A stretch of DNA of 64,000 nt, from the NCBI GenBank assembly GCA_046483845.1, contig JAWOCK010000098.1, positions 655 to 64,654 on the forward strand, written 5' to 3'. The notes beneath the pieces are model-generated. The model made no database searches, had not been told where the DNA came from, and saw nothing but the letters and a program-made list of their open reading frames with translations. Position numbers and translations under genes: made by a program. Positions 47,631 to 64,000 of this stretch are shown here, in pieces; the stretch's first letter is position 1, and each line of letters begins with the position of its first letter. The stretch is from Thermoplasmatota archaeon. Lineage in GTDB: Archaea; Thermoplasmatota; Penumbrarchaeia; Penumbrarchaeales; Penumbrarchaeaceae.

Positions 47631-47824
47631 AGCAATACCTCGGAGTCCTCAAAGGTCTCGGATTATTAATATTCACCAAGGAGGAGTGTTGTGAAAGTGA
47701 ACGAACCGTAAATTGCATAAACACGTAAGCAATTTCATTTAACTGGAGTAGATACTTCTTTAAGGTCGGATCTGGTCCAAATTAGGGGTATGTTCGGGAG
47801 CGTCCTTAAAAAGGGGAAAGCATC

Positions 47825-49276: not shown

Positions 49277-49280
49277 AACC

Positions 49281-50624
49281 TCAGACTATGCGCCACTTCT
49301 GATAGGCGGGTGCGTCGGGACCGAAGCAATAATGGATGGTCTGGAAATCCTTCTTGAACTCCTTGACATCCTCCTTAACCTTAATTGGGTCCTCCTTATC
49401 GATCAACACCCTCTTGAAGAGGTCGGCTACTTCCGACATATTGGATTCCTTCATGCCGATCCTGGTCAGTTCCTGGGAGCCAAGCCGGAGGCCGGAGGGT
49501 CTCATTGCCGATCCCGGATCGTCCGGTATCAGGTTCTTGTTGGTTATCATGTTGGACGTCTCCAGGTCCAGAGCGCACGGTGCTCCTCCTCCCTGATCCG
49601 AGACATCAAGCACTATTGCATGTGAGCTGGTGAAACCGTGCTTCTCTCCTAGGACTCTGAACCCCCTTTCATGCAGCGCCTGTGCAAGGGCCTTGGCGTT
49701 CCTTATGATCTGGTCAGCATATTCCCGACCGAATTCCAGGTGCTCTGCGAAGGCTATCCCCTTGGCAGCCATGTTCATCAGGTGATGGGAGGAATGGGTA
49801 CCGGGGAATATCCTTCTCCTCACCGCCTTCCACTGGTCTTCATCCCTTGGATCACCAACCACGACACCCCCCTGTGGGCCCGGAAGTGTCTTGTGTGTCG
49901 AGCCGGTCATGATGTGTGCCCCCTCTCTGAGCGGGTCCTGGAACCTCCCACCGGCTATCAGTCCCAGGACATGAGCACCATCATACCATACATGGCATCC
50001 TATCTCCTGGAGTGTGTCCTGAAGTTCCTTCAGAGGGGCCGGAAAGAGAAATACTGACCTTCCGAAAAGGCACAATTTGGGACGGTGCTCCAGAAGCAGC
50101 TTCTTGGTCTCATCCACATTGATGTTCATCATCTCTTTGTCCCATACATATGTCATCTCGTTGCCGCCTCTCAGACCGCCAGCACCGAACTTGGCGGAAG
50201 AGATATGTGCGCCGTCGTTCAGATGTGGGGCAAAATAGAGATCGCCCGGTTTAATGAAGGCAAAGAACGCTGAAATGTTCGCTGTGGTTCCGGAAATGGG
50301 TCTGACATCCGCCTGGGGGGCCTTGAACAGCTTCTTTGCTATTTCCGTGACCCTCAGCTCGACCTTATCGACATATATATTGCCATTGTAGTATCTCTTA
50401 CCCGGCAGCCCTTCTGCATACCTATCCGTGAAATCGCTCACCTGAAGCTGCCTGGCCAGTGGGGAGACCAGGTTCTCCGAGGCAATCATACAGAGGGAGT
50501 CGTGGAACCAGTCCGTATGGGTATCGACCTGTTCGTAGATATATCTCACATCTTCGTTATCTGGAAGTTTCAGGGTCATGTAAACACCTTTAATGGGTGA
50601 ATGGTGGAACCCCCAAATTAACAT
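49281..50624 (-). CDS. glyA: Serine hydroxymethyltransferase
   Basis: …LIASENLVSPLARQ…, PLP-lysine motif TGSTHKTLPGPQGG. Full-length SHMT. A start at MTLKL (about 50579) is possible. Confidence 0.9.
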   Translation of the reverse strand: MLIWGFHHSPIKGVYMTLKLPDNEDVRYIYEQVDTHTDWFHDSLCMIASENLVSPLARQLQVSDFTDRYAEGLPGKRYYNGNIYVDKVELRVTEIAKKLFKAPQADVRPISGTTANISAFFAFIKPGDLYFAPHLNDGAHISSAKFGAGGLRGGNEMTYVWDKEMMNINVDETKKLLLEHRPKLCLFGRSVFLFPAPLKELQDTLQEIGCHVWYDGAHVLGLIAGGRFQDPLREGAHIMTGSTHKTLPGPQGGVVVGDPRDEDQWKAVRRRIFPGTHSSHHLMNMAAKGIAFAEHLEFGREYADQIIRNAKALAQALHERGFRVLGEKHGFTSSHAIVLDVSDQGGGAPCALDLETSNMITNKNLIPDDPGSAMRPSGLRLGSQELTRIGMKESNMSEVADLFKRVLIDKEDPIKVKEDVKEFKKDFQTIHYCFGPDAPAYQKWRIV

Positions 50625-52383
50625 TTCCCGTGGTATAGGGACTGCACCATCGGATCGTTATGGCAATCCTGAGAGCCCCACAGAGGAAAAATCATTAACC
50701 CCATTCGATCATTCACGGGACGAGGCTGCGAACTTGAAGGGTGCTCCTGAGAAGAACGGATCGATCCATGCTCCTCAATTGAATGAGGAACAGGGAACCG
50801 AGGCTCTGATAGATGGTCTGATAAAGTCCATACTGCGGGGAGAGATATCGGACAGGGAAACACTCCAGCGGGAAAAGATCAAAGCTGCAAAGAGAGACAG
50901 TATCCGCTTACCGACGAATTCCATGATACTCGACACGGTCCGGAGGAAATATCCAAAAAAGGAAGAGGAAATGCTCCACCTCCTCATAAAAAAACCATCA
51001 AGGACATTGTCGGGAGTGGCCGTGGTGGCGGTGATGACATCCCCCGACCCATGCCCCCATGGAAAATGTATATTCTGTCCAGGGGGATGGGACAAGGAGG
51101 TTCCGACACCGCAATCGTATACGGGAAGGGAACCGGCGGCCATGAGAGCTGCCGATAATCTGTACCAACCCTTCGAACAGGTGAGAAGGAGGATAGAGCA
51201 GCTGGAGGCGGTCGGGCACTCAACTGACAAGATAGACCTGATACTCATGGGTGGTACGATAACGGCCCGCCCACTCATCTATCAGATCGATTTCGTCAAG
51301 AGATGTCTTGATGGCATGAACGACAGGATCAGCGGGACCCTGGAGGAGGCACAAAGGCTGAACGAGAGGTCGGAACACAGATGCATCGGGATAACCTTCG
51401 AGACCCGTCCGGACTGGTTCGGAAGAAAGGAGAGCGATCTGATGCTTTCCATAGGGGGTACCAGGCTCGAGCTAGGGGCCCAAACCCTCTTTGACCTCCC
51501 ACTCATCAGGTCCAAGCGGGGACACCAGGTCCGTGACACCATCGAGGCGACCACCATAGCCAAGGATTCCGGCCTGAAGCTGGGTTATCATCTCATGCCC
51601 GGGATACCGGGATCTTGCAGAGAGATGGACTTCGAGACCGCTTATATGACCTTCAATGACAGCAGGTTCAAGCCGGACATGCTGAAGATATATCCCACAT
51701 TGGTGATCAAAGGAACAAAACTCTACGACATGTGGCGCAGGGGCGAGTACGAACCCATATCCACCGAGGATGCTGCGGAGCTGGTAGCGGAGGTCAAGAG
51801 GATAACCCCTCCCTGGATAAGGATCCAGAGGGTCCAGAGGGATATCCCCAGCCCCCTCGTCGAGGGGGGAGTGGATAAAAGCAATCTGAGACAGCTTGCA
51901 GGAGATGTTATGCGGGACAGGGGTTGGAAGTGCAGATGCATCAGGTGCCGTGAGATAGGTCACAAGCTCCGCGATGGGGGAGGGGTTCCGCTTCCGGAGG
52001 ACGTGACCCTGACCAGAAGGGAATACGATGCCTCCGGTGGAAAAGAGGTATTCCTCTCTTTCGAGGCAGAGGCCATGGATGCCTTGGTGGGTTATCTGAG
52101 GCTGAGAAGACCATCACCGGATGCTCACAGGGATGAGATCAAAGCAGCGGCGGTGATCAGGGAGGTCAAGGTCTTCGGTCAGATGGTCCCCATCGGAAGA
52201 AGGGCGGGGGATGACTGGCAGCACAGAGGCTATGGAAAGGACCTTATCGGATATGCCAGCTCCATAGCAGGAGAAGAATGGGGAATGGAACACCTCCTGG
52301 TCACTTCCGGCATAGGCGTGAGGGATTACTACAGGAAACTGGGTTTCGAAAGGGTCGGCCCTTACATGGGAAAGGACCTTTGA
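50593..52383 (+). CDS. elp3: Elp3-family tRNA (cm5U34) modification enzyme: radical SAM plus GNAT acetyltransferase
   Basis: Radical-SAM cysteine cluster CPHGKCIFCPGG. Elp3 blocks throughout and a C-terminal GNAT region (…GYGKDLIGYASSIAGEEWGMEHLLVTSGIGVRDYYRKLGFERVGPYMGK). The exact start is uncertain because the listed ATG overlaps the glyA 5' end. Confidence 0.85.
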   Translation: MGEWWNPQINISRGIGTAPSDRYGNPESPTEEKSLTPFDHSRDEAANLKGAPEKNGSIHAPQLNEEQGTEALIDGLIKSILRGEISDRETLQREKIKAAKRDSIRLPTNSMILDTVRRKYPKKEEEMLHLLIKKPSRTLSGVAVVAVMTSPDPCPHGKCIFCPGGWDKEVPTPQSYTGREPAAMRAADNLYQPFEQVRRRIEQLEAVGHSTDKIDLILMGGTITARPLIYQIDFVKRCLDGMNDRISGTLEEAQRLNERSEHRCIGITFETRPDWFGRKESDLMLSIGGTRLELGAQTLFDLPLIRSKRGHQVRDTIEATTIAKDSGLKLGYHLMPGIPGSCREMDFETAYMTFNDSRFKPDMLKIYPTLVIKGTKLYDMWRRGEYEPISTEDAAELVAEVKRITPPWIRIQRVQRDIPSPLVEGGVDKSNLRQLAGDVMRDRGWKCRCIRCREIGHKLRDGGGVPLPEDVTLTRREYDASGGKEVFLSFEAEAMDALVGYLRLRRPSPDAHRDEIKAAAVIREVKVFGQMVPIGRRAGDDWQHRGYGKDLIGYASSIAGEEWGMEHLLVTSGIGVRDYYRKLGFERVGPYMGKDL

Positions 52384-52394
52384 AAGGCTCAAGC

Positions 52395-53258
52395 TCATTC
52401 CGGATTGGCTATCTTCAGACCCAGGTGGTCGCTCGTTGCTTCCACTTCCCGGAGGAGATCCTTGTTCCTCTTCGACCTGTGAAGGAAAATATATTCCGAT
52501 CCCGGCGTTGAATCCTTTGCCATCCGGATACATTCCGGGATATTCTCTGCTGATGAGAGGATATAGTCCGGGACCATGTGACCGAAATCGAACTTTTGAC
52601 GCATTGCCCTGTCCGTGAACCTCGGTGCATAATGTCCTCCTCCCACGCCTATGGAGACCGGCAGTGGTTCAGAAACTTCATCCCTTGTCAGCAGGGATAT
52701 TGCGATGGCCTTCCCCAGTTCCGGCAGATGCCATCTCTCCTCACTGGATCCGATCTCGATGAAGAAGGACGGAGAGGAGATCCTGGGACCGTGATGAGTT
52801 ACCTCGAAGGTGGTCCTGTCCTTCAGGTCAAGCTCCTTCTTGCTCCGATAGAGTGACCTGAGGGCGGATGTCATCTCACGGGGTGCCGACGGTGGCAGAT
52901 GTCCGGGTTCTCCGCCGTAATCTGCGGAAAGATAGTTCCCAGGAGGATGCACCGTAAGTGAGCGGATATCCTTCTTAGACCTGTGTTTGCTGAGGAATAT
53001 CAAAAGGTCAAGCGGCCGTTTTGGATCCGACGAGGGGTCCATTCCCAATTCTGAACTGATATGATCGGATATCTCCCTGTCCACATCCTCGAAGTAAAGA
53101 TGGAGACCTGGTTTTTCATAAAGAAGCAGGTCCCCGCTCATCCTGACGGGGTTCCCCTGAAAGGTCCCTACCTCATCCCATGAGGTAAGCTCAAGCAATC
53201 TGTCCCTTATATTCCTGGATGCCGTATCTTCCAGACTGGTCAGAAGTACCCTCATCAT
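52395..53258 (-). CDS. dtdA: D-aminoacyl-tRNA deacylase, archaeal DtdA type (tentative)
   Basis: The 287-aa size and N-terminus (MMRVLLTSLEDTASRNIRDRLLE…) plus blocks …THHGP… and …FFIEIGSSEERW… resemble the DtdA/DUF516 family. Based on recall only, no alignment. Confidence 0.5.
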   Translation of the reverse strand: MMRVLLTSLEDTASRNIRDRLLELTSWDEVGTFQGNPVRMSGDLLLYEKPGLHLYFEDVDREISDHISSELGMDPSSDPKRPLDLLIFLSKHRSKKDIRSLTVHPPGNYLSADYGGEPGHLPPSAPREMTSALRSLYRSKKELDLKDRTTFEVTHHGPRISSPSFFIEIGSSEERWHLPELGKAIAISLLTRDEVSEPLPVSIGVGGGHYAPRFTDRAMRQKFDFGHMVPDYILSSAENIPECIRMAKDSTPGSEYIFLHRSKRNKDLLREVEATSDHLGLKIANPE

Positions 53259-53270
53259 CTCATCTCACTG

Positions 53271-54497
53271 TCATTGCACCCTGGAGTCCTTTCCGATGGT
53301 CCCTGATGCCTTGGAACCGGGTCCTATCCTTGTCCCCGAATAGATCATGGTCCCCGGATCGAGGGTGGCATTTATGCCCGTCTTGACATCGTCTCCGATG
53401 ATCACACCCAACTTTCTTCTTCCCGAGTCCACCTTCTCACCTTTAATGGTCACCGGGACGTTGGCATCATCCAGTCTCAGATTTGCCACCTTGGTCCCCG
53501 ATCCCAGATTGCAGTCGGAACCGATTATCGAATCCCCAACGTAGTTGTGATGGGGTATGTTCGATCGGTCCATTATTATGGAATTCTTTACCTCGGATGC
53601 GGCGCCTACCCTGGCATCCTTTCCGATGTAAGTGGACCCCCTTATGTAGCTGTTCGGACCGATCACAGCACCTTCATCGATGTAGACCTTTCCCTCCATG
53701 TAGGTGCCGGACTTCACCAGTGCGCCCTTGGCTATGAACACATCATCCTTTATCGTCACACCCGCCTCCACCTTTCCTTCAAGGCCGCTTTCCAACTTCT
53801 CCATGTATACTTCGTGTGCATTGAGCAGGTCCCAGGGAGAGCCGATATCGACCCATTCCTCCCGGGGAATGTACGCTCTGACATTATGGGCCTCCATCAG
53901 GATTTCTATGGACTGTGTTATCTCATATTCGCCCCGGGGGGAGATGGGAGTCTCCGCGACGGCCTTGAATATATCCTCGGTGAACAGGTAGATCCCTCCG
54001 TTTATCAGACCGGGCATATCCTCTCCTGATTTTTCCTTTATACCAATGACCCGATCGCCCTCCACATGAACCAGACCAAATCTGGAGGTGTCCTTCACCT
54101 CCACAAGGGTCATTATAGTGTCCTTTTTGGCCTCGAAGAGCCGGAGCATCTCCTCTATTAGCTGACCGGATACTATCACATCACCGTTCAAACAGAGGAA
54201 AGGGCCGTCCATGGCCTCCGAGGCCATCGAAATTGCATGGGCTGTACCAAGTCTTCTTGGTTGAACGATGTAGTCCATCCGAACACCGAAGGAGCTGCCG
54301 TTCCCGAAATAATCCTTTATAGATATCCCGTGATAACCTGTCAGGACCTGGACCTCCGTGACCCCGGCATCCCGAAGGGCATTTATGGTATGCTCCAGAA
54401 AAGGTTTTCCAGCAACGGGAAGCATGGGTTTGGGTCGATTTTCGGTCAATGGACCCATGCGAGTCCCTTGGCCCGCTGCCAGCACCAGTGCCTTCAT
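53271..54497 (-). CDS. Bifunctional sugar-1-phosphate nucleotidylyltransferase/acyltransferase (GlmU-like; N-terminal NTP-transferase plus C-terminal left-handed beta-helix)
   Basis: Start moved to MKALVLAAGQGTRMGPLTENRPKPMLPV (nucleotidyltransferase signature). The C-terminal third has hexapeptide repeats (…VGDSIIGSDCNLGSGTKVANLR…). Confidence 0.75.
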   Translation of the reverse strand: MKALVLAAGQGTRMGPLTENRPKPMLPVAGKPFLEHTINALRDAGVTEVQVLTGYHGISIKDYFGNGSSFGVRMDYIVQPRRLGTAHAISMASEAMDGPFLCLNGDVIVSGQLIEEMLRLFEAKKDTIMTLVEVKDTSRFGLVHVEGDRVIGIKEKSGEDMPGLINGGIYLFTEDIFKAVAETPISPRGEYEITQSIEILMEAHNVRAYIPREEWVDIGSPWDLLNAHEVYMEKLESGLEGKVEAGVTIKDDVFIAKGALVKSGTYMEGKVYIDEGAVIGPNSYIRGSTYIGKDARVGAASEVKNSIIMDRSNIPHHNYVGDSIIGSDCNLGSGTKVANLRLDDANVPVTIKGEKVDSGRRKLGVIIGDDVKTGINATLDPGTMIYSGTRIGPGSKASGTIGKDSRVQ

Positions 54498-54857
54498 CAT
54501 GACACGCTCGTTCATCCGGAACATGCTCTTTGTACTTCTTTTTTTTCTGAGAATGATCTGACCAACACCGTTCATACGGGATCATATCTGATGGTCATCT
54601 CCACGAAACCAATAACAATATTACAGAAAGAACATTGAGCAGGGTAGAAAAGTAGCCAGCAATATTATTTGACAGGTGTAGAAGAACCTGAAGAACGATG
54701 GCTGGGAAAATGAAAGTTCACCTGCGCGGTAAAAGAAGATAGAAACCATGCCTCAGAACGTGTCCTGATGGTATAAATTCCCAAGAATAGGTTTTTTTTC
54801 CGTTAAAATGACAGTCCAGAAGGAATATATTTAAATAGCCAGCAGTCGTTATGGGGT

Positions 54858-55151
54858 GTGGGTAGGGGATTAAGCTACCTTTATAGGAGGATGCTCAATA
54901 TGGCAATGACCAGGATAGATATTGGAACTGCAAAGAACATCGCGAATGAAAAGAACCTGAAACCAGGCAGGGTCGTGGGTACAGATGGTGTCCAGTTCAC
55001 CAAGGGCAACAACAAGAGGCTCGAGGTCATAGGCTGGAACGATTTCGAGAACGCCCTCAACACGAAGGACCTTGCCATCTATGAGTCCAAGGGCTGGATG
55101 AAGATAATGAAAAAAGAGAAACGTATCCCTGAAACGTTAATTGAACCCTAA
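54858..55151 (+). CDS. Small hypothetical protein
   Basis: 97-aa ORF in an otherwise gene-free stretch. No recognisable motif, so its coding status is uncertain. Confidence 0.3.
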   Translation: MGRGLSYLYRRMLNMAMTRIDIGTAKNIANEKNLKPGRVVGTDGVQFTKGNNKRLEVIGWNDFENALNTKDLAIYESKGWMKIMKKEKRIPETLIEP

Positions 55152-55721
55152 TAAAGTTTGGAAACAACTTTACACGTTACATGGTCATGTGACGTATATT
55201 GTCCTTGGATCGAACATCGACATACTATCGAAATTCAACCAATGATAATGCTTGCAGAACCCTAAGGGAAATTTAAGATTCTCTTGGGCACAGCAGAACC
55301 TACGGTTCCGCTTAGGTCTCGGGATCGGTTTACATGGCCTATGACTTTGCTCAGGATTGGTCCTGGAGGGGTTGAAAGAGGTATGGGGCTCTTTCTTTCT
55401 GTATACTTGTTCCATCATAATGTGACGTCAGTTGATACCAAATGAAGTTTGATATGAACAGGTGGATCGGAACCTGGGACCTCGGGAGATAGTGGAGTCA
55501 GAAGGTGTTTTCGTCTGCGAGTGCGGGGCCACTCATGTACAGGCCCGAGCAGGGCACAAGTCTTTTTTCCAGCTTTCAGGTCCCGAGTTGGGGCCACGAC
55601 CTGCGACATTTCAGGTCACTTTGCGGGTCGGGGCCTTCTCCTTGGGAGCTTTTTTTACCTTTGTCCGATCATCGATCCCAGATTGAACCTGGGCCTGACA
55701 AATGGGTTCCTCAGATAAAAG

Positions 55722-56573
55722 GTGAAACGGTCAATAGGTTTATTAGTGATGAAGGTGGATTTTATCCTCATGAAGTTCAATCTGGGAAAGCGAGAGATAG
55801 TGATCTTCCTGGCGATCATACTCGTGGTGTCCGTCGGGTCCTACTTACTCTTCATCAGGGACAGCGGAGGAGGCAGTGTTGACGATACGGATGACCGGGA
55901 TGACAAGAACAGAAAGCCCGTTGCGAACGCAGGTCTGGACCAGATGGTATACCCGGGGGAGCCGGCGATATTGAACGCCAGTAGCTCCAGCGATCCGGAT
56001 GGCGATGATCTCTATTTCAAATGGGATGTCGATGCAGGTGTTGACGAGAATAACGATGGCATCAAGGACAACGATTGGGAAATTAACGGCATGGTCGTCG
56101 AATGGACATATCCAGAACCCACGGAGGATATATCCTACATCGTGACCGTCAACGTATCGGACGGAGAGGCCTGGTCCACCGACACCAGCGTCGTTACTGT
56201 ATACGTTAGTAAGAATAAAACGATACCCGAGGTCACGCTGAGTTGCAACTACCAGCAGCAGCTCCCCTATTTGAGCTCCCACTTCATCGTTAGAGTGGAG
56301 GAGGTGACCTCAGAGGAGTCCATGATGAACTATAGTTATGAACTCGAGAACCCCGAGGGGAGTGTCATCAGGAACGGGACCCTGTCCTCGCTGATACCTA
56401 CCGGTCCCAACTCGACGGAGATCGCGTTCATCGATACCCCGTCCCTCGGTCTTCTTGACAGCATGGACAGTGTTTCCCTTAAGGAGAATGACGAGATAGT
56501 CGAGGGGTGCACGTTCAAACTCTATTATCTCATGGAACCCGAACCGGTCGGAGAAATAGAGCTCACCAAATAA
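55722..56573 (+). CDS. Small secreted/anchored protein with PKD-like domain
   Basis: N-terminal signal anchor (IVIFLAIILVVSVGSYLLFI), then NAGLDQMVYPGEPAILNASSSSDPDGDDLYFKWDVDAG, which is PKD-domain-like. The listed start is GTG; ATG starts at about 55749 or 55770 are likely. Confidence 0.55.
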   Translation: MKRSIGLLVMKVDFILMKFNLGKREIVIFLAIILVVSVGSYLLFIRDSGGGSVDDTDDRDDKNRKPVANAGLDQMVYPGEPAILNASSSSDPDGDDLYFKWDVDAGVDENNDGIKDNDWEINGMVVEWTYPEPTEDISYIVTVNVSDGEAWSTDTSVVTVYVSKNKTIPEVTLSCNYQQQLPYLSSHFIVRVEEVTSEESMMNYSYELENPEGSVIRNGTLSSLIPTGPNSTEIAFIDTPSLGLLDSMDSVSLKENDEIVEGCTFKLYYLMEPEPVGEIELTK

Positions 56574-56594
56574 CAGGAGAACAAGAGAACAAGG

Positions 56595-56650
56595 GCCTAT
56601 TATATGCTTGCAATTATTGGATAATTAGAACTAAAATGGTCCCGGCTCAT
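56595..56650. repeat. Direct repeat copy 1 (about 55 bp) containing the last 12 nt of tRNA-Tyr plus its downstream flank
   Basis: gcct(a)ttatatgCttgcaattattggataattagaactaaaatggtcccggctc is nearly identical (1-2 mismatches) to the segment at about 56775-56830 that ends inside the tRNA-Tyr 3' end. A third, shorter, diverged tRNA-3'-end-like fragment (tcgtcccggctcccggacc) lies between them at about 56683-56701. Confidence 0.6.
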
Positions 56651-56774
56651 AATATGTTCTCAATACTGATGGTAAAATGTTCTCGTCCCGGCTCCCGGAC
56701 CTTCGCACAAAACTGACCATCTCAAAATTGGTATCGGTTTTGTGCTGGCCAATAATTATTCTACAATTATAACG

Positions 56775-56830
56775 GGAGCCTTTATATGTTTGCAATTATT
56801 GGATAATTAGAACTAAAATGGTCCCGGCTC
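56775..56830. repeat. Direct repeat copy 2, overlapping the 3' end of tRNA-Tyr
   Basis: See copy 1. This copy is contiguous with the intact tRNA gene. Confidence 0.6.
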
Positions 56831-56934
56831 CCGGATTTGAACCGGGGGTCTAAGGATGTCTGCGGGGGGGCGGGGAGGAGCTCCCCGGGATCCAACTACA
56901 GTCCCCCGCTCTAGCCAGACTGAGCCAAGCCGGG
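56819..56934 (-). tRNA. tRNA-Tyr: tRNA-Tyr (anticodon GUA) with a 38-nt canonical-position intron (37/38) and encoded CCA
   Basis: Folded by hand on the minus strand. Acceptor CCCGGCT/AGCCGGG (7 bp), U8, D-arm GCTC-AGTCTGGCTA-GAGC (G18G19). Anticodon stem GGGGA/TCCTT with loop C-U-GUA-G|intron|A. Intron TTGGATCCCGGGGAGCTCCTCCCCGCCCCCCCGCAGAC. Variable loop AGACC, T-arm CCCGG-TTCAAAT-CCGGG, discriminator A, then CCA. Coordinates ±1-2. Confidence 0.8.
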
Positions 56935-57046
56935 TATGTTTGGTATCAGCCCTATTCAATCCTGATATATAAATGTTCGAGGAGTGATAACATATGAGAA
57001 TTTGACCAATAGGGTTTTCTATATTGGTACATTTAACAAGTTGGCT

Positions 57047-59899
57047 ATGAAAATGAACATTGGCTCCCGAAAGAAAGAGAGAACCATGGACCTCATCGAT
57101 AGGAAAGAGGAGCTGGCTCGGATCCAGGACATGATGAAAGGTGCGGAAAGTGGCAAAGGAGGTATGGTCCTCATCAAAGGCGAAGCCGGCATAGGCAAGA
57201 CCCGGCTCATAGATGAGGTGGCTAGGAGGGCGAAAGAGAGGGGATATTCGATCTATCGGGGGGCCTGTCTCCATTACAGAAGGTTCCCGTTATTCCCCTT
57301 CACAGAGATGATCAGGGATATCTACGATATAAGGAACGTTCCGATATCCGATGACATCAGAGCTTCCCTGGAGAAGAGGATCAAAAAGGTCCTTGGAACC
57401 GAAACATTACAGATCCGGGAGCTTTTAAAGCTGATCGAACCTGTGAACGATCCACTTGGAGCATACCGGTTCGACCTCGCTGACAAGGTCTCCTTGATCA
57501 AACAAATCCCTCCCATGGGTATGGAGGCAATATCCATTGGGAAACAAGGGAGTCAGCAGAACTTCATTCCGGATGAGAAAGACATCAAGTCCGTTGAATT
57601 GGGGGAAGGAAAGGAAAGTCTCGACCCGAAGAATGTTCAACTGCTGATCGATACCCTCGAAGGTTTCTTCGAAAGTAACCCCTACGGCATGGCGATCCTC
57701 CATTCATTCGATGAACTGGCCAAGGTAAACACCCGTAAGGAAATGAAGAGGTTCATAAAGAACATGGATGAGATCTCCAGGAAGAACAGTGGCGCCATCT
57801 TGTTCGGTTCGGTGGATCCCGAGGATGGTTTATTGAAGGAATTATCGGCATATGAGCCTTTCAAGGACGATAAAAGAACATCGGATATTACAGGGTCGGA
57901 TCCGGATGAGATCATGGGCTCACCAAACAGGATGATATCCTCCATATTCAACTCGCTGTCCGAGGATAACAAGAGCTTGATAATATTGGAGAACCTTCAA
58001 TGGGGGGACAAATCCACTCTCAACCTCCTTCATTACCTGGCAAGGGATGCAGCGGACAGGAACATGTTCATAATCGGCTCCTACCGAAGCGAGGAGCTCA
58101 ATCTGGAAGCGGATGGAGAAGAACAGGTACCGCTGAGGGATTCCCTTCAGCGGATGACGAGGGAGCACCTGTTCAGTACCTTGGAACTGGAAAGGTTCGA
58201 TAGGAAAAAGACATCAGAAATGGTAGAGTGCCTGATCGGGGAGAAACCCCGAAGAAGTCTGGTAGATGATGTGATGAAGGAAACAGATGGAAATCCCCTT
58301 TTCGTGATCGGTTACTTCAGCTCAGGGCTCCATGGCTTTTTTCCGGGGATGGTCCTGGATAACATCTTACCCGACCAAAAGACAATGATCACCATCAGGC
58401 TAAGGTCCCTAGACGAGAATGTAAGGGAAGCGTTGGAGCTTGCTTCCGTGATGAAAGACGATATTACAATAGAAGGTCTATCAAGGATCCTGGGAATGGA
58501 ACAGGGTAAGGTACTCGATATCATTGACGACCTGATGGTCCTCAAGTTCTTAAAGGAGAGCAATGAGGGTTTCATCTTCGAGCACGGAAAGGTAAGGAAG
58601 GTCATCTATGAAATGATGGATGAAGAGAGGAAGAAAGATCTGCACAGGAAGATCGCCCGGACATTGTATGGAAAGGGATTTGAAGATGACCCCGCAATGA
58701 TGTCTCGGGCATCCGAACATTATCTGATTGGCGGAGAGGAAAAAAAGGCGCTCGATCTGATACTCGCTCTATCGGAAAAACACAGAGACGATATACCAGC
58801 TGAGGTTCTGCTGGTTCATCTGAATAAAGCACTGGAGTGCATGGGTGACCTGGAGGGAGGAATGGACCGTCTCGACGACAGGGTCAGTATACTTCAGGAA
58901 AAGGGAGACATAGAAGAAAGGTGCGGGATGTTAAAGGAGGCAATGGGATCCTATCTGGAAGCGGTCCAGATAGCCGAAACGACCGGGATTTCCCATGACC
59001 TTGCCAGATCCTACAGGAAGATCGGGGATATGAAGTTGAGAATGTTCCAATGGGATCAGACCATCGATTTCTATCTCAGATCGCTCAACATCTCCAAGAA
59101 GGAGAAAAAACACATCGAGATATCCAAGGCTTTCAAAGGACTCGGGAACATCTACTTCTACAAAGGCGATTACTCCCGCTCCATTGAATGCTATCTGAAA
59201 TACATGGATTATCCAGAGAACCTCAAGGTTTCGGATCAGCTGGATTCCATGATCGGTATGGGAGACATATATTATCAGATGGGTGATTTCAATCAATCAT
59301 TGACCTATTTCAAGCTTGCTATCAGAAAATGCGATGAAGGAAAACTGGTCCCCTCCATTATATTGGCACACATGAAAATGGCAAAGGTCCTGTTGAGACT
59401 GGGAGAGGTTGAAGATTCCATCAGATTTGCCGAGGATGCATATTCCAGGATCGGGAACATATCGAACCGCCATGATTTCCAGCAGATCCTCATTTATTAT
59501 GTTGACCTGATGATAGAGGTCGGTGAAATGGAAAAAGCCCAGGAGGGCATCGACCAATTGGAGGACACGGTCTGGGGTATCTCCGATCTTCTCCTTGAGA
59601 CGCAGTGGCACAGGATAGTTGGTATCTTCCTTTCAAAACAAAGAAATTTCAAGGGCTCCATATACCACATGACCAAGGCACTCGAGATCCTGGAGAAGAT
59701 AGATATCCCGTTCCACACGGCATTGACATATTTCCATTTCGGACTGATCCGCTTCCAGCAGATGGACGTGGACGGTGCTCTGGAAATGCTGATCAAGGCA
59801 AATACAATATTCAAAAGGATAAAGGCATTGCATTACATCAGCAGAAGCTCATCCAAGCTCAGGGAGGTCGGCTTCATAAAGGAAGGTCTCAGAGGATAG
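57047..59899 (+). CDS. STAND/AAA_16-type P-loop NTPase with C-terminal TPR array and no recognisable DNA-binding or effector domain
   Basis: Walker A in LIKGEAGIGKTRLIDEVARRAKERG. Central helical region. C-terminal TPR-like repeats (…SYRKIGDMKLRMFQWDQTIDFYLRSL…AFKGLGNIYFYKGDYSRSIECYLK…IGMGDIYYQMGDFNQSLTYFKLAI…). The track ORF starts with GTG at 56984; ATG at 57047 or 57086 is more likely. Confidence 0.7.
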   Translation: MKMNIGSRKKERTMDLIDRKEELARIQDMMKGAESGKGGMVLIKGEAGIGKTRLIDEVARRAKERGYSIYRGACLHYRRFPLFPFTEMIRDIYDIRNVPISDDIRASLEKRIKKVLGTETLQIRELLKLIEPVNDPLGAYRFDLADKVSLIKQIPPMGMEAISIGKQGSQQNFIPDEKDIKSVELGEGKESLDPKNVQLLIDTLEGFFESNPYGMAILHSFDELAKVNTRKEMKRFIKNMDEISRKNSGAILFGSVDPEDGLLKELSAYEPFKDDKRTSDITGSDPDEIMGSPNRMISSIFNSLSEDNKSLIILENLQWGDKSTLNLLHYLARDAADRNMFIIGSYRSEELNLEADGEEQVPLRDSLQRMTREHLFSTLELERFDRKKTSEMVECLIGEKPRRSLVDDVMKETDGNPLFVIGYFSSGLHGFFPGMVLDNILPDQKTMITIRLRSLDENVREALELASVMKDDITIEGLSRILGMEQGKVLDIIDDLMVLKFLKESNEGFIFEHGKVRKVIYEMMDEERKKDLHRKIARTLYGKGFEDDPAMMSRASEHYLIGGEEKKALDLILALSEKHRDDIPAEVLLVHLNKALECMGDLEGGMDRLDDRVSILQEKGDIEERCGMLKEAMGSYLEAVQIAETTGISHDLARSYRKIGDMKLRMFQWDQTIDFYLRSLNISKKEKKHIEISKAFKGLGNIYFYKGDYSRSIECYLKYMDYPENLKVSDQLDSMIGMGDIYYQMGDFNQSLTYFKLAIRKCDEGKLVPSIILAHMKMAKVLLRLGEVEDSIRFAEDAYSRIGNISNRHDFQQILIYYVDLMIEVGEMEKAQEGIDQLEDTVWGISDLLLETQWHRIVGIFLSKQRNFKGSIYHMTKALEILEKIDIPFHTALTYFHFGLIRFQQMDVDGALEMLIKANTIFKRIKALHYISRSSSKLREVGFIKEGLRG

Positions 59900-59949
59900 T
59901 CTCGTTGGGAAAGATTATTTACCTACTGCTCGGTTACCTTGAAAACGGT

Positions 59950-61524
59950 ATGTCCTCTATCGTAAAAAATGTGCTGATCTCCGTGTCGGATAAGACCGGC
60001 CTGGAGATATTTGCCAGGGGTTTGAGCGAACTGGGTATTGACATTATCTCATCGGGAGGAACCTATAGGTTCCTCAGGGATAATGATATTGAATGCAGGC
60101 TTGTCGAGAACATAACGGGTTTCCCGGAGATCCTGGGTGGAAGGGTCAAGACACTTCATCCGAAGATATGCGGTGGCATCCTCGGTCGGAGGGACATTGA
60201 TGAGCATAGAAAGGAGATGGAGGAGCATAATATCATCCCGATCGATATGGTGGTGGTGGACCTCTATCCCTTCGAGAAGACCATAGAAAGGCAGGATGTG
60301 AAGGTTCAGGATGCCATAGAGAATATCGATATCGGGGGTCCGTCCCTTATACGATCTGCAGCCAAGAACTTCAGGGATGTGATCGTTGTCGTGGACCCGG
60401 CGGACCGGGATAGGGTGCTGGAAAAGCTCAGGTCGAAAGAAGAGATCGACCTGGATACAAGAAAGGACCTGGCGATAAAAGCATTCCAACTTTCTTCTTC
60501 CTATGATATCGCAATATACAACTGGATGCAGGAAGAATTCCATCCGGAAATGCCCTGGGGGGATTCCATAAGGGCCAGGTTCAACAAGGAAATGGACACC
60601 AGGTACGGCGAGAACCCGCACCAAAAGGGTGCCTATTTCTCTGAACCCGGGTTCAGCGGCATCTCCGTTGCCAACTCGGATGTCCTTTGGGGAAAGGAAC
60701 TGTCCTACAACAACATCTACGATGTGGATGCAGTAACCGACATATTGATGGAGTTCCCTGGTGAGGTCTGTTGCGCGATCATCAAGCACAACAACCCATC
60801 CGGTGTTGCGATCGCACCCGAAGGGAGCAACAGACCATTGGCTGATGCCTTCGAACTTGCTTTCAGCTGCGATCCGCTCAGTGCCTTCGGTGGCATAATC
60901 GGCCTGAGCCGTGAGTGCGATGGGGACACGGCCGAAAGGATCAACCAGAGGTTCTTTGAGGTCGTCGTAGCACCTGACTTCACCGAAGAGGCACTGAAGG
61001 AGCTGGAAAGAAAGAAGAACCTCAGGATCATAAGGACCAACAGGCCCATTATCGACACCACAACCCCAGAGAAGAGATGGGTGAAGATAAAGGGCGGCCT
61101 CCTTTTACAAACCATGGAGTGGCCTGAAGTGGACCCTTCAAAATGGAAGGTGGTTTCGAGGTCGGATCCCAGCGAGGAGCAGCTTGGGGACCTGGCCTTT
61201 GCCTCCAAGGTGGTCAAGCATGTGAAATCAAATTGTGTGGTCATGGCCAAGGGGAGAAGGACCGTGGGCATCGGTGCCGGGCAGATGAGCAGGGTGGACT
61301 CCTGTTTCATGGCAGGAAAGAAAGCTGGTGAAAATGCCAGGGGGTCGGTGCTCTCATCGGACGCGTTCTTCCCATTCCGTGACGGCATAGATGCGGTTGC
61401 GGAAACTGGTGTCCTCTCCATAGCTCAGCCGGGGGGCTCCATAAGGGACCAGGAAGTGATCGATGCTGTCGATGAACACGGCATGTCCATGGTCTTTACC
61501 GGTATCAGATTGTTCAAGCACTGA
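59950..61524 (+). CDS. purH: Bifunctional AICAR formyltransferase / IMP cyclohydrolase
   Basis: Start moved to MSSIVKNVLISVSDKTGLEIFARGL (MGS-like IMPCH domain). …KTLHPKICGGILGRRD…, C-terminal AICARFT blocks (…VVMAKGRRTVGIGAGQMSRVDS…). The listed ORF is over-extended 5'. Confidence 0.9.
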   Translation: MSSIVKNVLISVSDKTGLEIFARGLSELGIDIISSGGTYRFLRDNDIECRLVENITGFPEILGGRVKTLHPKICGGILGRRDIDEHRKEMEEHNIIPIDMVVVDLYPFEKTIERQDVKVQDAIENIDIGGPSLIRSAAKNFRDVIVVVDPADRDRVLEKLRSKEEIDLDTRKDLAIKAFQLSSSYDIAIYNWMQEEFHPEMPWGDSIRARFNKEMDTRYGENPHQKGAYFSEPGFSGISVANSDVLWGKELSYNNIYDVDAVTDILMEFPGEVCCAIIKHNNPSGVAIAPEGSNRPLADAFELAFSCDPLSAFGGIIGLSRECDGDTAERINQRFFEVVVAPDFTEEALKELERKKNLRIIRTNRPIIDTTTPEKRWVKIKGGLLLQTMEWPEVDPSKWKVVSRSDPSEEQLGDLAFASKVVKHVKSNCVVMAKGRRTVGIGAGQMSRVDSCFMAGKKAGENARGSVLSSDAFFPFRDGIDAVAETGVLSIAQPGGSIRDQEVIDAVDEHGMSMVFTGIRLFKH

Positions 61525-61668
61525 CAGCGTCAATGTTATTAGAGCAATGAAGTATCACCTCATAGACCACAACGGGTGAAACAGATGTCCGACGAGTCGA
61601 TCGATATTGAACCCACCATGCAGGAGATGACCATACAAACCTCAGGTTTCAGCATCACCACAGGAAAA

Positions 61669-62304
61669 ATGTCGGCCCTCGATGAGAAGAGGGAGAAAAA
61701 TAAAAAAAGGATCGCTGTTCTGGCATCCGGAAGGGGGACCGATTTCCAGGCAATAGTTGACGCATCCGAATCCGGGGAGGTTCACCTGAACATCGCCCTG
61801 CTGATCTGCAACAACAGCGACGCGTACGTCATAGATCGGGCAAAGGAACATTCCATACCTTATGTGGTGATCGACCACAGGAACAGGAAGCGCCAGGAAT
61901 TCGATAAGGAGATCGATGATCTACTGAGGAAGGAGAACATCGACCTCGTCGTGCTCGCGGGTTTCATGAGGATACTTTCCAGGTGGTTCGTGGTGCGTTG
62001 GAGGGACCGGATCATCAATATCCATCCCTCCTTGCTGCCGTCATTCCCGGGGGCGCACGCACACAGGGACGCATTGGAATATGGTGTCAAGGTAACCGGT
62101 CTTACTATCCATTTCGTGGATGAGGAGGTCGACCACGGTCCCATTATATTCCAATACCCCGTTATGATATTCGATGATGATGACGAGGAGAGCCTTTCGG
62201 GAAGAATACTGAAAGAGGAGCACAAATGGTACCCACGGATCATCCAATGGATCGTCGATGGAAGGGTCAAAAGGGACGGAAGAAAGGTAAGGGTCGATAA
62301 ATGA
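61669..62304 (+). CDS. purN: Phosphoribosylglycinamide formyltransferase
   Basis: [17 protein letters not shown], …[44 protein letters not shown]… (folate-binding / catalytic His-Asp region). Start chosen to give a canonical length of about 210 aa. Confidence 0.8.
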
Positions 62305-62323
62305 ACGAAAGCGGGGAAACAGG

Positions 62324-64000
62324 ATGGACAGCGTATTCGATCTGAGGTCCGATTTCCAACCCGCAGGAGACCAGACCAAGGCAATAGAGGAGATAGTGGA
62401 GACCTTTGGACAAGGTGGTGATCATGTCACACTTCTCGGTGTCACCGGATCGGGGAAGACGTTCACCGTGGCCAATGTCATAGAAAGACTTGGTCTTCCC
62501 ACGCTTGTCATGAGCCACAACAAGACCCTTGCAGCCCAGCTGGCCTCCGAATACGGTGATTTCTTCCCCAACAACGCTGTGGAATACTTCGTTTCCTATT
62601 ACGATTATTATCAGCCGGAAGCCTATGTTCCTCAGAAGGACCTGTACATCGAGAAGGATGCCTCCATTAACGATGAGATAGACAGGTTGAGGCACAAAGC
62701 GACAATGTCCCTGATGACCAGAAAGGACGTGGTAATAGTATCATCGGTATCCTGCATTTTCGGTCTCGGCTCCCCTGAGGAATATTTGAAACACAGCATA
62801 GATCTCCAGAAAGGGCAGAGGATATTGAGAAAGGACCTCTATTCCTCCCTGGTGGAGATGCAGTACAGAAGAGCTGAATCACTGGAGAGGGGGACCTTCC
62901 GGGCAAGGGGCCAGATGATAGAGGTCTGCACCGCCGATCAGACAGTGGTCAGATTGGAGTTCTTCGGGGACAGGATAGATTCCATCAGCTATGTGCATCC
63001 TGTATCGGGAGAGGTGACAGAAGAGATCCAGAGGATCCTTATCTTTCCAGCCACCCATTACAACATATCATCGGAAAGGCTGGAAAGGATATTGGCCCGG
63101 ATAGAGAAGGACATGGAAGAGAGGGTTGGATGGTTCAAGAGACATGACAAGTTCCTTGAAGCGGAACGGCTCCAACAGAGGACCTTGTACGACCTGGAGA
63201 TGATCAGGGAGATGGGGAGCTGCTCCGGGATCGAGAACTACAGCCGTTACTTCGACGGCAGGAGACCGGGAGAGCCACCGTACACCCTCCTGGACTTCTT
63301 CCCCGATGAGTTCCTGCTGGTAATAGATGAATCGCATGTCACGGTTCCCCAGATAGGTGGAATGTACCAGGGTGATCGATCCAGGAAGGAGAACCTGGTC
63401 GAATATGGGTTCAGACTGCCCGCAGCACTTGATAATCGACCTCTGAAGTTCAGGGAGTTCGAGAAGAGGATCTCAAGGGTGCTTTACACATCCGCCACTC
63501 CCGGTTCATACGAGAACAAGAGATCCTGTAGGGTCGTCGAACAGATAATCAGACCTACCGGTCTGATCGATCCCGAGATCGAGGTCAGACCGGTCATGGG
63601 CCAGCTGGAGGACCTTCTGGGTGAGATAAGAAAAAGGGTGGGGTCAAAAGAGCGTGTGCTCGTAACCACCCTCACCAAGAGGATGGCAGAGATGCTGGCA
63701 GATCACCTGAAGGAGCTGGGTGTCAAGGTCCATTATCTTCATTCTGACGTGAAGACATTGGAGAGGATAGAGATCATCAGTGATCTGAGAAGAGGGAAGT
63801 ACGATGTCGTGGTGGGAATAAACCTTCTGAGAGAGGGGTTGGACCTGCCCGAGGTCTCCCTGGTGGCGATACTGGATGCGGACAAGGAAGGTTTTCTGAG
63901 GTCGGAGACCAGTTTGATACAGACCATCGGCAGGGCGGCAAGGAATGTATCCGGAAAGGTCATCATGTATGCGGATGGCATCACCGGTTCCATGGAACGG
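62324..64000 (+). CDS. uvrB: Excinuclease ABC subunit B (UvrB), 3' end beyond the window
   Basis: [25 protein letters not shown]…[18 protein letters not shown] (Walker A), …helicase motifs…[24 protein letters not shown] at the window edge. Open reading frame in frame 2 continues to nt 64000 without a stop, so it is absent from the ORF track. Confidence 0.85.

Follow-up and report, generated by a model that had tools for sequence, protein, structure and literature searches.

A STAND–TPR protein of the core genome with a nested KaiC-like module in an uncultured Thermoplasmatota lineage

The combination of a STAND ATPase with tetratricopeptide repeats (TPRs) is the chassis of Avs proteins, and a gene of this layout lies beside a tRNA gene and a set of att-like repeats in a 64,000-nt stretch of DNA (the window) from a Thermoplasmatota archaeon. 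Is it an antiviral sensor lodged at an integration hotspot, or does it serve the cell in another capacity? A preliminary description made from the sequence alone considered the protein effector-less and a defence or signalling role worth testing. A signalling role remains the best reading: with a probability of about 0.5, the gene encodes a vertically inherited, single-copy signalling switch of the AAA_16/MalT clade of STAND proteins, whose output or adaptor would be an inactivated KaiC-like (iKaiC) module.

The gene and its neighbourhood

The features at and around the gene are as follows:

56600..56830, no strand: zone of scar-like repeats lying 3' of the tRNA (context, outside the gene)
56819..56934, minus strand: tRNA-Tyr(GUA) with an archaeal intron (Rfam RF00005, 50.1 bits; ARAGORN intron mode)
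57009..57027, plus strand: putative BRE/TATA promoter of the STAND gene, motif ATAGG(G/A)TTTT... (tRNA–STAND spacers of four loci compared)
57053..59899, plus strand: STAND–TPR gene (ORF list; database protein P0001; leader lengths of orthologs)
59900..59949, plus strand: 50-nt STAND–purH spacer with a BRE/TATA-like element (GGAAAgATTATTTACC...GAAAACGGT, then ATG; spacers of six orthologous loci compared)

The open reading frame at 56984-59899 on the plus strand is real, and the 971 codons counted from GTG 56984 represent the maximal frame in the ORF list. Translation likely starts at ATG 57053, giving 948 aa; this start is preferred because homologues support it and because the product then has the length of P0001, a database protein of 948 aa that is 99.9% identical to the window protein. 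The N-terminal leaders of orthologs are comparable in length, and a second in-frame ATG at 57047 is an alternative start. The sequence GEAGIGKTRLIDE is found in the window protein. The ATAGG(G/A)TTTT... motif, conserved at the four loci, sits about 30 nt 5' of the start codon and is the putative promoter of the gene.

The tRNA-Tyr(GUA) gene lies 119 nt upstream of the STAND gene on the opposite strand, so that the two are divergent, and its anticodon loop carries a 41-nt insertion (Rfam). Because of this intron, the tRNA was missed by ARAGORN at default settings and, in loci L001-L003, by Rfam at gathering thresholds; both results are false negatives, and the tRNA was recovered with Rfam in E-value mode and with ARAGORN -i, which called it tRNA-Tyr(GTA). 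The repeat zone holds two 49-nt direct repeats (56600-56648 and 56782-56830, 98% identical), each composed of the 12-nt 3' end of the tRNA and about 38 nt of flank, together with a 15-nt partial tRNA 3' end at 56685-56699. Three copies of the repeat are present in L004 (an NCBI contig, 99.96% identical) versus two in the window. Similar partial tRNA ends occur in L001, L003 and L006, and none was found in L002. The tRNA and the att-like repeats pointed out in the preliminary description are therefore real, but the repeats lie on the far side of the tRNA: they face a PKD gene at the 3' side, whereas the STAND gene lies 5' of the tRNA, at its promoter side, and is therefore neither inside nor bounded by the repeat zone. 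Viral contigs gave no attP candidate carrying the tRNA-Tyr 3' end (0 matches to a 25-mer), and the 44 matches to a 15-mer of this end are close to the number expected by chance on a rough estimate.

The neighbourhood of the gene is stable. In all nine related genomes tRNA-Tyr is directly upstream of the STAND gene, and purH is downstream in eight, the exception being L006, which has another gene there. Apart from this locus, the order PKD–tRNA-Tyr–STAND–purH–purN–uvrB holds wherever contigs reach, the upstream PKD gene and the downstream purN–uvrB pair being present wherever a contig extends that far. The whole collinear block exceeds 20 kb, and the shared gene order persists at protein identities as low as 33%. 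Relatives with a purH of at least 63% identity show no presence/absence polymorphism of the STAND gene; relatives whose purH is at most 48% identical share no synteny and for that reason are uninformative on its presence or absence. The STAND gene evolves fastest in the block, at 33–48% identity versus 60–88% for most neighbours, and the PKD gene is also fast (37–65%). No partner gene is conserved beside the STAND gene. The default assumption that purH is co-transcribed with the STAND gene was rejected, as the 50-nt spacer contains a conserved promoter-like element, and an independent promoter for purH is probable. Synteny that extends across genus- to family-level distances shows that the STAND gene is not mobile, although it does not indicate function. 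The gene belongs to the core genome, is most likely inherited vertically and occupies a fixed housekeeping position. The idea of a defence or integration hotspot does not survive this comparison, in which the housekeeping neighbourhood is conserved across the nine genomes, the very outcome that the preliminary description had named as a refutation.

Domain anatomy and the nested module

The protein is divided as follows:

57086..57271, plus strand: first part of the nucleotide-binding domain (NBD), with beta1, P-loop, alpha1 and beta2 (Pfam AAA_16 stretch 5-82; AF2 E26-32, H38-51, E55-60)
57272..57442, plus strand: helical segment of three helices, 3' of a conserved PxxPF motif (AF2 H70-79, H89-103, H107-117; ortholog alignment)
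57443..57871, plus strand: nested inactivated KaiC/RecA-like (DUF835-like, 'iKaiC') alpha/beta module of about 140 aa without Walker A
57872..57922, plus strand: linker after the nested module, low-confidence and poorly conserved (pLDDT <50 at residues 261-277)
57923..58240, plus strand: second part of the NBD, with Walker B, the sensor-1 Arg in GSYRSEE, and beta5 (second AAA_16 stretch)
58241..58795, plus strand: helical domain, winged-helix domain and arm of the NOD, with GNPLF and the FEH histidine (invariant residues; Foldseek; TIGR03903)
58796..59896, plus strand: TPR sensor of about 18 helices (Pfam TPR_12; weak, sub-threshold TPR_MalT; PDB matches to CTPR and LGN/Pins TPRs)

The protein is a STAND NTPase of the AAA_16/MalT clade. 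Pfam matches AAA_16 above its gathering score in two stretches (E 9.4e-19) and TPR_12 (E 2.4e-22), and the TPR_MalT match is weak and sub-threshold (27.4 bits versus a cutoff of 45). NCBIfam TIGR03903 matches locally at residues 284-557. The full-length AF2 model has a mean pLDDT of 87.3, and the best Foldseek match in the PDB is 6MFV, the archaeal STAND–TPR protein PH0952 (E 1.5e-12); a sequence search of the PDB matched TPR proteins only and left the NOD undetected. Neither Pfam nor NCBIfam detects an HTH or other DNA-binding family in the window protein, and no GerE, Trans_reg_C or BTAD effector domain matches at either end. Thus, the AAA_16/STAND P-loop domain, the long TPR region and the lack of an HTH described at the outset are borne out by Pfam, NCBIfam and the PH0952 match. 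The orthologs, which span 837-956 aa, likewise include none with a LuxR-type or other HTH, the feature that in the preliminary description would have marked the gene as a truncated regulator. Nothing lies N-terminal of the P-loop domain: in the 937-aa form Pfam places the start of the NBD at about residue 5, and the AF2 model has no domain ahead of it.

From N- to C-terminus, the layout is the first part of the NBD, the helical segment, the nested module, the second part of the NBD, the helical and winged-helix domains, the arm and the TPR sensor. Walker A (GEAGIGKT, 57179-57202) fits GxxxxGK[ST], with G, K and T invariant in the alignments. The three helices after PxxPF are kept in all orthologs, including L008, and the linker after the module has the lowest conservation within the protein. 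Walker B (LIILENLQWGD) is at 57977-58009. W306, D308 and R334 are near-invariant, G402, P404, F498 and H500 are invariant, and the GNPLF and FEH motifs are invariant or near-invariant. Where orthologs have the acidic pair of Walker B as hhhhED, the window protein has EN (LIILEN), the strand and the W, D and R residues being conserved; N at this near-invariant second acidic position may impair hydrolysis. The sensor comprises about nine TPR pairs, and its central TPRs and last three helices are the best-conserved parts of the protein (0.55-0.68 at P0001 residues 661-760 and 881-948).

The protein can no longer be called effector-less, as a cryptic domain of RecA/KaiC-superfamily alpha/beta fold, similar to DUF835 and devoid of a Walker A P-loop, is nested between Walker A and Walker B of its NBD. 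The module is modelled as a complete RecA-like domain with a core pLDDT >90, from a shallow alignment of 29 sequences. DUF835 (PF05763) is the sole consistent Pfam match of the insert, in four of five orthologs: the window insert scores 13.7 bits, below the gathering threshold of 33.1, ortholog inserts score 19–25 bits, also sub-threshold, and P0003 gives no match. Relatives of the same architecture (P0045, P0125, P0142 and P0176) reach 95–131 bits with DUF835, and three of them (P0125, P0142 and P0176) combine a split AAA_16, a bona fide DUF835 (101–131 bits) and TPRs. A word-indexed protein search with the insert profile found one protein only, and an exhaustive hmmsearch was used instead. 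With this search the profile, which includes P0045, matched 1,366 proteins; a Pfam scan of eight among the best 150 found either a bona fide DUF835 or this nested layout in 8/8. At E 1e-22 to 1e-10 the profile retrieves DUF835 proteins of several layouts (7TM-DUF835, stand-alone, C-terminal), in which Pfam confirmed the domain, and about 15 further cluster representatives of 916–994 aa match it at residues ~135–275. DUF835 has been described as an inactivated-KaiC output domain of archaeal response regulators, and REC-DUF835 proteins are reported from Thermoplasmata, in the same phylum as the window protein (PMC5847659).

The module is also the least conserved region of the protein (identity fraction 0.11–0.29 versus 0.55–0.68 for the TPRs). 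Its length and position are constant in six of the seven orthologs checked at the residue level; L087 and L088 align over their full length without a gap at the level of the whole alignment. The exception is L008, a syntenic ortholog that has a low-complexity linker in place of the module and retains the remaining protein. Because of this replacement, the module is possibly vestigial rather than an output.

KaiC-superfamily modules have been fused to the STAND–TPR chassis recurrently, at three different positions; for instance, DUF835 is N-terminal in P0209, and KaiC/DUF7504 is C-terminal in P0033 and P0029 (Pfam). Thermoplasmatota also encode paralogous AAA_16–TPR families (P0006-P0044) with 22–26% identity over the NOD and TPRs, which differ from the window gene in modules and genomic contexts and occur several per genome, whereas the window gene corresponds to one syntenic ortholog. 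Some of these paralogs carry a C-terminal KaiC (P0029, P0033) or a Pfam-listed Ser/Thr kinase domain, and four (P0009, P0012, P0013 and P0031) carry a different insert at the NBD site that holds the module in the window protein. This alternative insert has no Pfam, NCBIfam or PDB-profile match; it is suspected, as an unverified lead, to be Roadblock/LC7-like because of the JGI name of P0026 and the small Ras/Arf-type GTPase gene that adjoins the P0012 gene. GerE, SARP, kinase or cyclase domains occur only in distant bacterial AAA_16 relatives.

A proposed signalling switch and its alternatives

In the scheme inferred here, which covers what the TPRs bind, how the protein oligomerises, what the insert does as an output and which process is controlled, the NOD would rest closed on ADP, with TPR/arm–NBD contacts keeping it shut; PH0952 and MalT serve as the models. 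The well-conserved central and C-terminal TPRs would bind a conserved ligand or partner protein of the cell, and binding would lift autoinhibition, leading to ADP/ATP exchange and multimerisation. The output would be the nested iKaiC module, acting as a protein–protein adaptor with no DNA-binding or enzymatic effector. Lying between Walker A and Walker B, the module would be presented in dependence on the nucleotide state, and it would couple the STAND switch to KaiC-type signalling proteins or to another partner. A wider proposal, tentative and rather unlikely, is that Thermoplasmatota AAA_16–TPR proteins form a modular STAND platform with an output module plugged into the NBD between Walker A and B. 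If so, the ADP/ATP state would directly gate the exposure of an adaptor to KaiC-type or small-GTPase-type hubs, a kind of output coupling without a described precedent in MalT, Apaf-1, NLR or Avs proteins.

The protein may instead be a plain NOD–TPR scaffold that acts through its TPRs and oligomerisation, for instance as an assembly or co-chaperone-like platform, the module being a decaying relic without an output role. The low conservation of the insert, its loss from L008 with the rest of the protein kept, the below-threshold DUF835 scores across the clade, the change of Walker B to EN in the window protein and the strong conservation of the TPRs and C-terminal helices all agree with this account. 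It is doubtful though possible, since the module is predicted with confidence to fold as a complete RecA-like domain, keeps its length and position in 6/7 orthologs and is represented by bona fide DUF835 at the same site in related proteins. An antiviral Avs/NLR-like sensor fixed in the chromosome, with TPRs that sense a viral protein and a separate effector or the nested module as executor, is improbable. The STAND–TPR chassis, the fastest evolution within the block and the adjoining tRNA, with integration-like scars of variable copy number in its 3' flank, would suit such a sensor. Against it, the PADLOC-DB matches are confined to generic TPR models and, weakly, mad8 (E 0.011), with no Avs/AVAST or other STAND defence model among them; no nuclease, protease, SIR2 or TIR domain is present at the N-terminus; the gene occupies an identical position between housekeeping flanks in nine genomes without presence/absence polymorphism; the scars flank the tRNA at the end away from the gene; within the protein, conservation is highest in the TPR sensor and lowest in the insert; and the neighbourhoods of distant relatives lack defence genes. 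No nuclease, protease, SIR2 or TIR-type gene adjoins the STAND gene either.

Two further readings turn on regulation of transcription or of the neighbours. Control of purine biosynthesis (purH/purN) or of tRNA-Tyr expression is suggested by the adjacency to tRNA-Tyr (9/9) and purH (8/9) and by the promoter region common to the STAND gene and the divergent tRNA. This reading is quite improbable: the adjacency is explained by descent because the block of >20 kb is collinear, purH has its own conserved promoter element, the gene downstream in L006 is not purH, and the protein lacks any domain for binding DNA or RNA. Even less probable, to the point of being very hard to sustain, is a truncated or degenerate transcription regulator of the MalT/LuxR/SARP type that has lost its HTH. 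Distant AAA_16 homologues do carry GerE, SARP or Trans_reg_C DNA-binding domains, and PH0952 and MalT are transcription-type STANDs (PMC6468293). The syntenic orthologs checked at the residue level begin and end alike, without an HTH in any: Pfam lists no such domain for P0002-P0005, and the ends of L007 and L008 align with theirs. In each of them the NBD stands right at the N-terminus, and the protein is not truncated, because its C-terminal helices are among its best-conserved parts.

Comparison with known systems

With Avs/AVAST proteins, the signalling switch proposed here shares its overall build, a STAND ATPase with a TPR-like sensor behind it, and it differs from them in matching no Avs or other STAND defence model in PADLOC, in having no N-terminal effector and in sitting at a fixed place among housekeeping genes, not in a defence island. 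One plausible-looking candidate for an archaeal antiviral STAND sensor is thereby removed. A tRNA beside a STAND–TPR gene is not sufficient for a defence-island call; it also has to be checked on which side of the tRNA the gene lies and whether synteny is conserved.

PH0952 of Pyrococcus horikoshii (6MFV) and E. coli MalT are MalT-clade STAND ATPases with TPR/SUPR sensors. Their domains follow one another as in the window protein (NBD, helical domain, winged-helix domain, arm, TPR sensor), and Walker A, the sensor-1 Arg, GNPLF and the WHD His are conserved, although sequence identity to 6MFV is only about 13%. An autoinhibition mechanism has been described for PH0952 (PMC6468293), and by analogy its ADP-closed state probably applies here. 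Unlike PH0952 and MalT, the window protein has no N- or C-terminal HTH effector, and its NBD is interrupted by the RecA/KaiC-like module of ~140 aa and by helices. It thus documents a STAND ATPase whose sole extra domain is an inactivated KaiC-like module nested in its P-loop domain. The nested module shares with DUF835/iKaiC output domains a RecA/KaiC fold without a P-loop. It differs from them in lying inside another P-loop domain instead of at the C-terminus, and from classical DUF835 in its score of 13.7 bits, below Pfam gathering, its poor conservation and its loss in one ortholog. If the module is the output, the protein would connect STAND switches with KaiC-like hubs, both of them archaeal signalling systems about which little is understood.

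Gene model and domain architecture

The open reading frame of the STAND gene, 56984–59899 (+), comprises 971 codons when GTG is taken as the start and encodes GEAGIGKTRLIDE. P0001, a near-identical database copy (948 aa, 99.9% identity), starts at ATG 57053, and the N-terminal leaders of the orthologs are short and similar in length to that of P0001; thus, the true gene most likely spans 57053–59899. A 639-aa ORF that runs into its end (59605–61524) is purH with an artefactual extension at its 5′ end; the actual gene starts at ATG 59950 and encodes 524 aa, as in the orthologs.

The STAND-type P-loop domain and TPR region recognised in the preliminary description were confirmed by Pfam, which matched AAA_16 in two distinct stretches (E = 9.4e-19) as well as TPR_12 (2.4e-22); TPR_MalT matches residues 599–826 weakly, below threshold. 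The reported absence of an HTH also holds, since the Pfam scan found no DNA-binding family in the protein and the orthologs have no HTH. In NCBIfam, the matches were limited to generic TPR proteins and, locally, the NOD of a TOMM kinase/cyclase fusion. In the 937-aa form starting at 57086, used here for residue numbering, Walker A occupies residues 32–39 and Walker B (LIILENLQWGD) residues 298–308 (window 57977–58009). The two motifs lie ~260 residues apart; in uninterrupted relatives the entire Pfam AAA_16 match covers only ~170–180 residues. AAA_16 is therefore broken into two stretches by an insert between Walker A and Walker B.

In the full-length AlphaFold2 model (mean pLDDT 87.3, 56-sequence alignment), the predicted order from the N-terminus is beta1, P-loop, alpha1, beta2 and three helices, followed by an alpha/beta module of five to six strands (residues ~120–262), a disordered linker, a helix and strand with Walker B, and the rest of the NBD. 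A helical domain, a winged-helix domain, an arm and ~18 TPR-type helices are predicted to complete the protein. The best PDB match to the whole model by Foldseek is 6MFV, PH0952 of Pyrococcus horikoshii, the archaeal MalT homologue on which double autoinhibition of STANDs with a TPR sensor was defined (PMC6468293). The second acidic residue of Walker B is N in the window protein and D in all other orthologs and in nine of ten wider-alignment sequences. The substitution may slow hydrolysis and leave the protein hydrolysis-deficient in this species, although nucleotide binding should be kept.

The KaiC-like module nested in the ATPase

When the insert was scanned alone, DUF835 (PF05763) was the only consistent Pfam match, found in four of five clade members at E-values of 1.6e-5, 2.2e-5, 1.3e-3 and 0.056, all under the 33.1-bit threshold. 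An exhaustive search of 1.84 billion representative proteins with a profile of the insert (E ≤ 1e-3) matched 1,366 proteins. All eight top matches scanned with Pfam carry a bona fide DUF835 or share the nested architecture, and ~15 more cluster representatives (916–994 aa) match at residues ~135–275, the same position as the insert of the window protein. By Pfam, P0125, P0142 and P0176 consist of a split AAA_16, a bona fide DUF835 (101–131 bits) and TPRs, and P0140, P0135 and P0143 are ordinary DUF835 proteins. The window protein, described earlier as effector-less, thus has an extra domain, which is cryptic because it is both nested and diverged. No GK[ST] motif is present in the insert.

In passages of the work of Galperin and colleagues (PMC5847659), DUF835 is listed as an inactivated KaiC-like ('iKaiC') domain that serves as an output of response regulators in archaea of the Methanomicrobia and Thermoplasmata; those passages give REC–DUF835 architectures and contain no STAND fusion. 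Among the passages returned by a literature search on DUF835 and iKaiC, none describes a KaiC-like domain nested in a STAND NTPase. Pieces of the architecture in relatives are already annotated in databases, and the nested arrangement is a real curiosity of putative function.

Across the family, KaiC-superfamily modules occur on the STAND–TPR chassis at three positions.

Position of KaiC-superfamily modules in the window protein and homologous database proteins
Nested KaiC-like module: window protein, P0045, P0125, P0142, P0176
N-terminal DUF835, then AAA_16/NB-ARC, then TPR: P0209
Uninterrupted AAA_16, then TPR, then C-terminal KaiC/DUF7504: P0033, P0029

Recurrent fusion irrespective of position usually marks a functional link, and it is the main argument for the KaiC-like module as output or adaptor of the window protein. 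Other domains are also carried: by Pfam, other relatives have a Ser/Thr kinase domain, and cyclase, GerE or SARP domains occur in distant AAA_16 homologues from bacteria. In the Thermoplasmatota paralogs P0009, P0012, P0013 and P0031, a different module of ~110 aa occupies the same nested NBD site. It was suspected to be Roadblock/LC7-like, for which profile searches gave no support; a related protein is labelled Roadblock/LC7/MglB-like by JGI. At 8001–11918 of contig L005, the gene of P0012, a distant paralog, is in convergent 9-nt overlap with a gene for a small Ras/Arf-family GTPase (TIGR00231, E = 9e-21). A single Thermoplasmata MAG (CAZRSB01; contigs L010, L021, L025 and L029) carries at least four AAA_16–TPR paralogs on separate contigs, and therefore the family is expanded in the class.

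Conservation along the protein, scored as the fraction of seven aligned syntenic orthologs identical to the window protein
Insert: 0.11–0.29 (least conserved)
P-loop: 0.63
Central TPRs, P0001 residues 661–760: 0.56–0.68
Last three helices, residues 881–948 (...TSSKLREVxFIKEGL): 0.55–0.68

The ortholog of the Thermoplasmatota MAG Zod_Metabat.266 (L008, 5944–8457; 837 aa), in the same syntenic slot, has a low-complexity linker (DHDTPEGSPEGGQLSENNGPPQDAQAP...) in place of the alpha/beta KaiC-like module and retains the three helices and the remainder of the protein. At least one lineage can thus do without the module, which may be decaying.

Genomic neighbourhood and the defence reading

The neighbourhood was compared between the window, whose own NCBI match is L004, and eight other genomes or contigs.

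Protein identity of the relatives to the window protein
L001: 48%
L002: 40%
L003: 36%
L006: 38%
L007: 37%
L008: 37%
L087: 37%
L088: 33%

A divergent, intron-bearing tRNA-Tyr(GUA) lies ~110–190 nt upstream of the STAND gene in all nine genomes, and purH ~50–115 nt downstream in eight; in L006 a DUF2683 ORF follows instead. Next after purH come purN, uvrB and an aminotransferase wherever the contig is long enough, and the upstream block (SHMT–ELP3–DtdA–sugar-nucleotidyltransferase–72-aa ORF–PKD protein) is collinear as well. Among relatives with purH at least 63% identical, no absence of the STAND gene was found; purH relatives at ≤48% identity share no synteny and hence are uninformative on its presence. 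The block also keeps, at 57–68% identity, a 483-aa protein (window 47825–49276, +) that has TPRs at its C-terminal end and whose long N-terminal half is rich in Lys/Glu and of low complexity.

The STAND gene and purH each have a conserved BRE/TATA-like element of their own. In window 59900–59949 and orthologous spacers, six genomes in total, the purH ATG is directly preceded by a highly conserved GGAAAnnTTATTTACC...TTACCttGAAAACGGT, which resembles a BRE/TATA promoter from which a nearly leaderless purH mRNA would be made. The 3′ half of this element (TTACC..GAAAACGGT) is conserved as well.

Features of the tRNA-Tyr zone in the window
56819–56934 (−): tRNA-Tyr(GTA), ARAGORN in intron mode
56600–56648 and 56782–56830: 49-nt direct repeat, copies 98% identical
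56685–56699: 15-nt partial copy of the tRNA 3′ end

The Rfam tRNA model scores 50.1 bits at 56822–56934 (−), where 41 nt are inserted into the anticodon loop; the tRNA bears an intron and has an encoded CCA end. Combined with the names of the homologues, these tRNA features assign the window to an uncultured Thermoplasmatota archaeon. With default (bacterial-mode) settings, ARAGORN gave a false negative, calling no tRNA anywhere in the window; a second intron-bearing tRNA, tRNA-Met(CAT) at 11967–12081 (+), was likewise picked up only in intron mode. Each repeat copy comprises the last 12 nt of the tRNA and ~38 nt of downstream flank. Partial 3′-end copies are present in the window, L004, L001, L003 and L006 (two to four at L001 9201–9480, L003 3959–4240 and L006 1–16), always in the PKD–tRNA spacer (41 to 616 nt), and are absent from L002, whose spacer is 41 nt. 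The pattern suggests that integration and excision, or duplication, have recurred at the tRNA-Tyr across this lineage; no integrated element is there now. A ~170–183-nt unit holding the repeat occurs twice in the window (56574–56830) and three times in L004 (9353–9778), which is otherwise 99.96% identical, so copy number varies between near-identical genomes. Since downstream flank is duplicated together with the tRNA end, the zone resembles the product of unequal recombination or tandem duplication more than it does a plain attL/attR pair. Window 47222–64000 differs from L004 (CAYWLX010000006.1) by seven substitutions in 16.8 kb and the repeat unit; in the STAND gene, one of the seven changes an amino acid (GMEQ[G/D]KVLD). 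The window is thus a very close, non-identical variant of that deposited assembly.

The preliminary description raised a defence or signalling role as worth testing, given the position beside att-like tRNA-Tyr repeats and the frequent occurrence of antiviral STAND sensors at tRNA-adjacent integration hotspots. In favour of a defence role, the STAND gene is the most diverged of its block (33–48% identity, compared with 60–88% in most of the neighbouring genes); fast evolution is also seen in the PKD gene (37–65%). The tRNA and repeats are real, but integrases act on the 3′ side of tRNAs, where the PKD–tRNA spacer and its copies lie, and the STAND gene flanks the tRNA on its 5′ side. A conserved housekeeping neighbourhood in all relatives had been named beforehand as refuting the defence proposal, and the same tRNA-Tyr/purH slot is what was found. 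The defence-island reading fails on this ground, in agreement with the repeat side, the separate promoters, PADLOC (only generic TPR models on the protein) and the lack of defence genes in the contexts inspected around more distant relatives. A role in archaeal antiviral immunity is not supported, and a well-conserved sensor combined with a variable insert would be more in keeping with recognition of an endogenous ligand or partner that is itself conserved than with an arms race. The anatomy described here and a core-genome status for the gene are put at a probability of about 0.9.

Proposed mechanism and comparison with known systems

Upon this observed anatomy, homology and genomic fixity, a signalling and output model can be built in which every functional step is conjecture; it is tentative, at even odds or slightly less. 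By analogy with PH0952 and MalT (PMC6468293), the resting protein would be ADP-bound and closed, held by contacts of the TPRs and arm with the NBD. A ligand on the TPRs would release this state, allowing ATP binding and then multimerisation. The multimer would then expose its nested iKaiC modules, a platform on which a partner would dock; the most plausible candidate is a signalling ATPase of the KaiC family.

Compared with known systems, the protein falls outside Avs on the three features tested (HMM match, N-terminal effector and genomic context). Its insert belongs to DUF835 by profile homology and fold, not by Pfam threshold. Lacking an HTH, the protein and its orthologs are set apart from the HTH-regulator subgroup, and save for its deviant Walker B, the window protein has the features tested for the AAA_16/MalT STAND clade.
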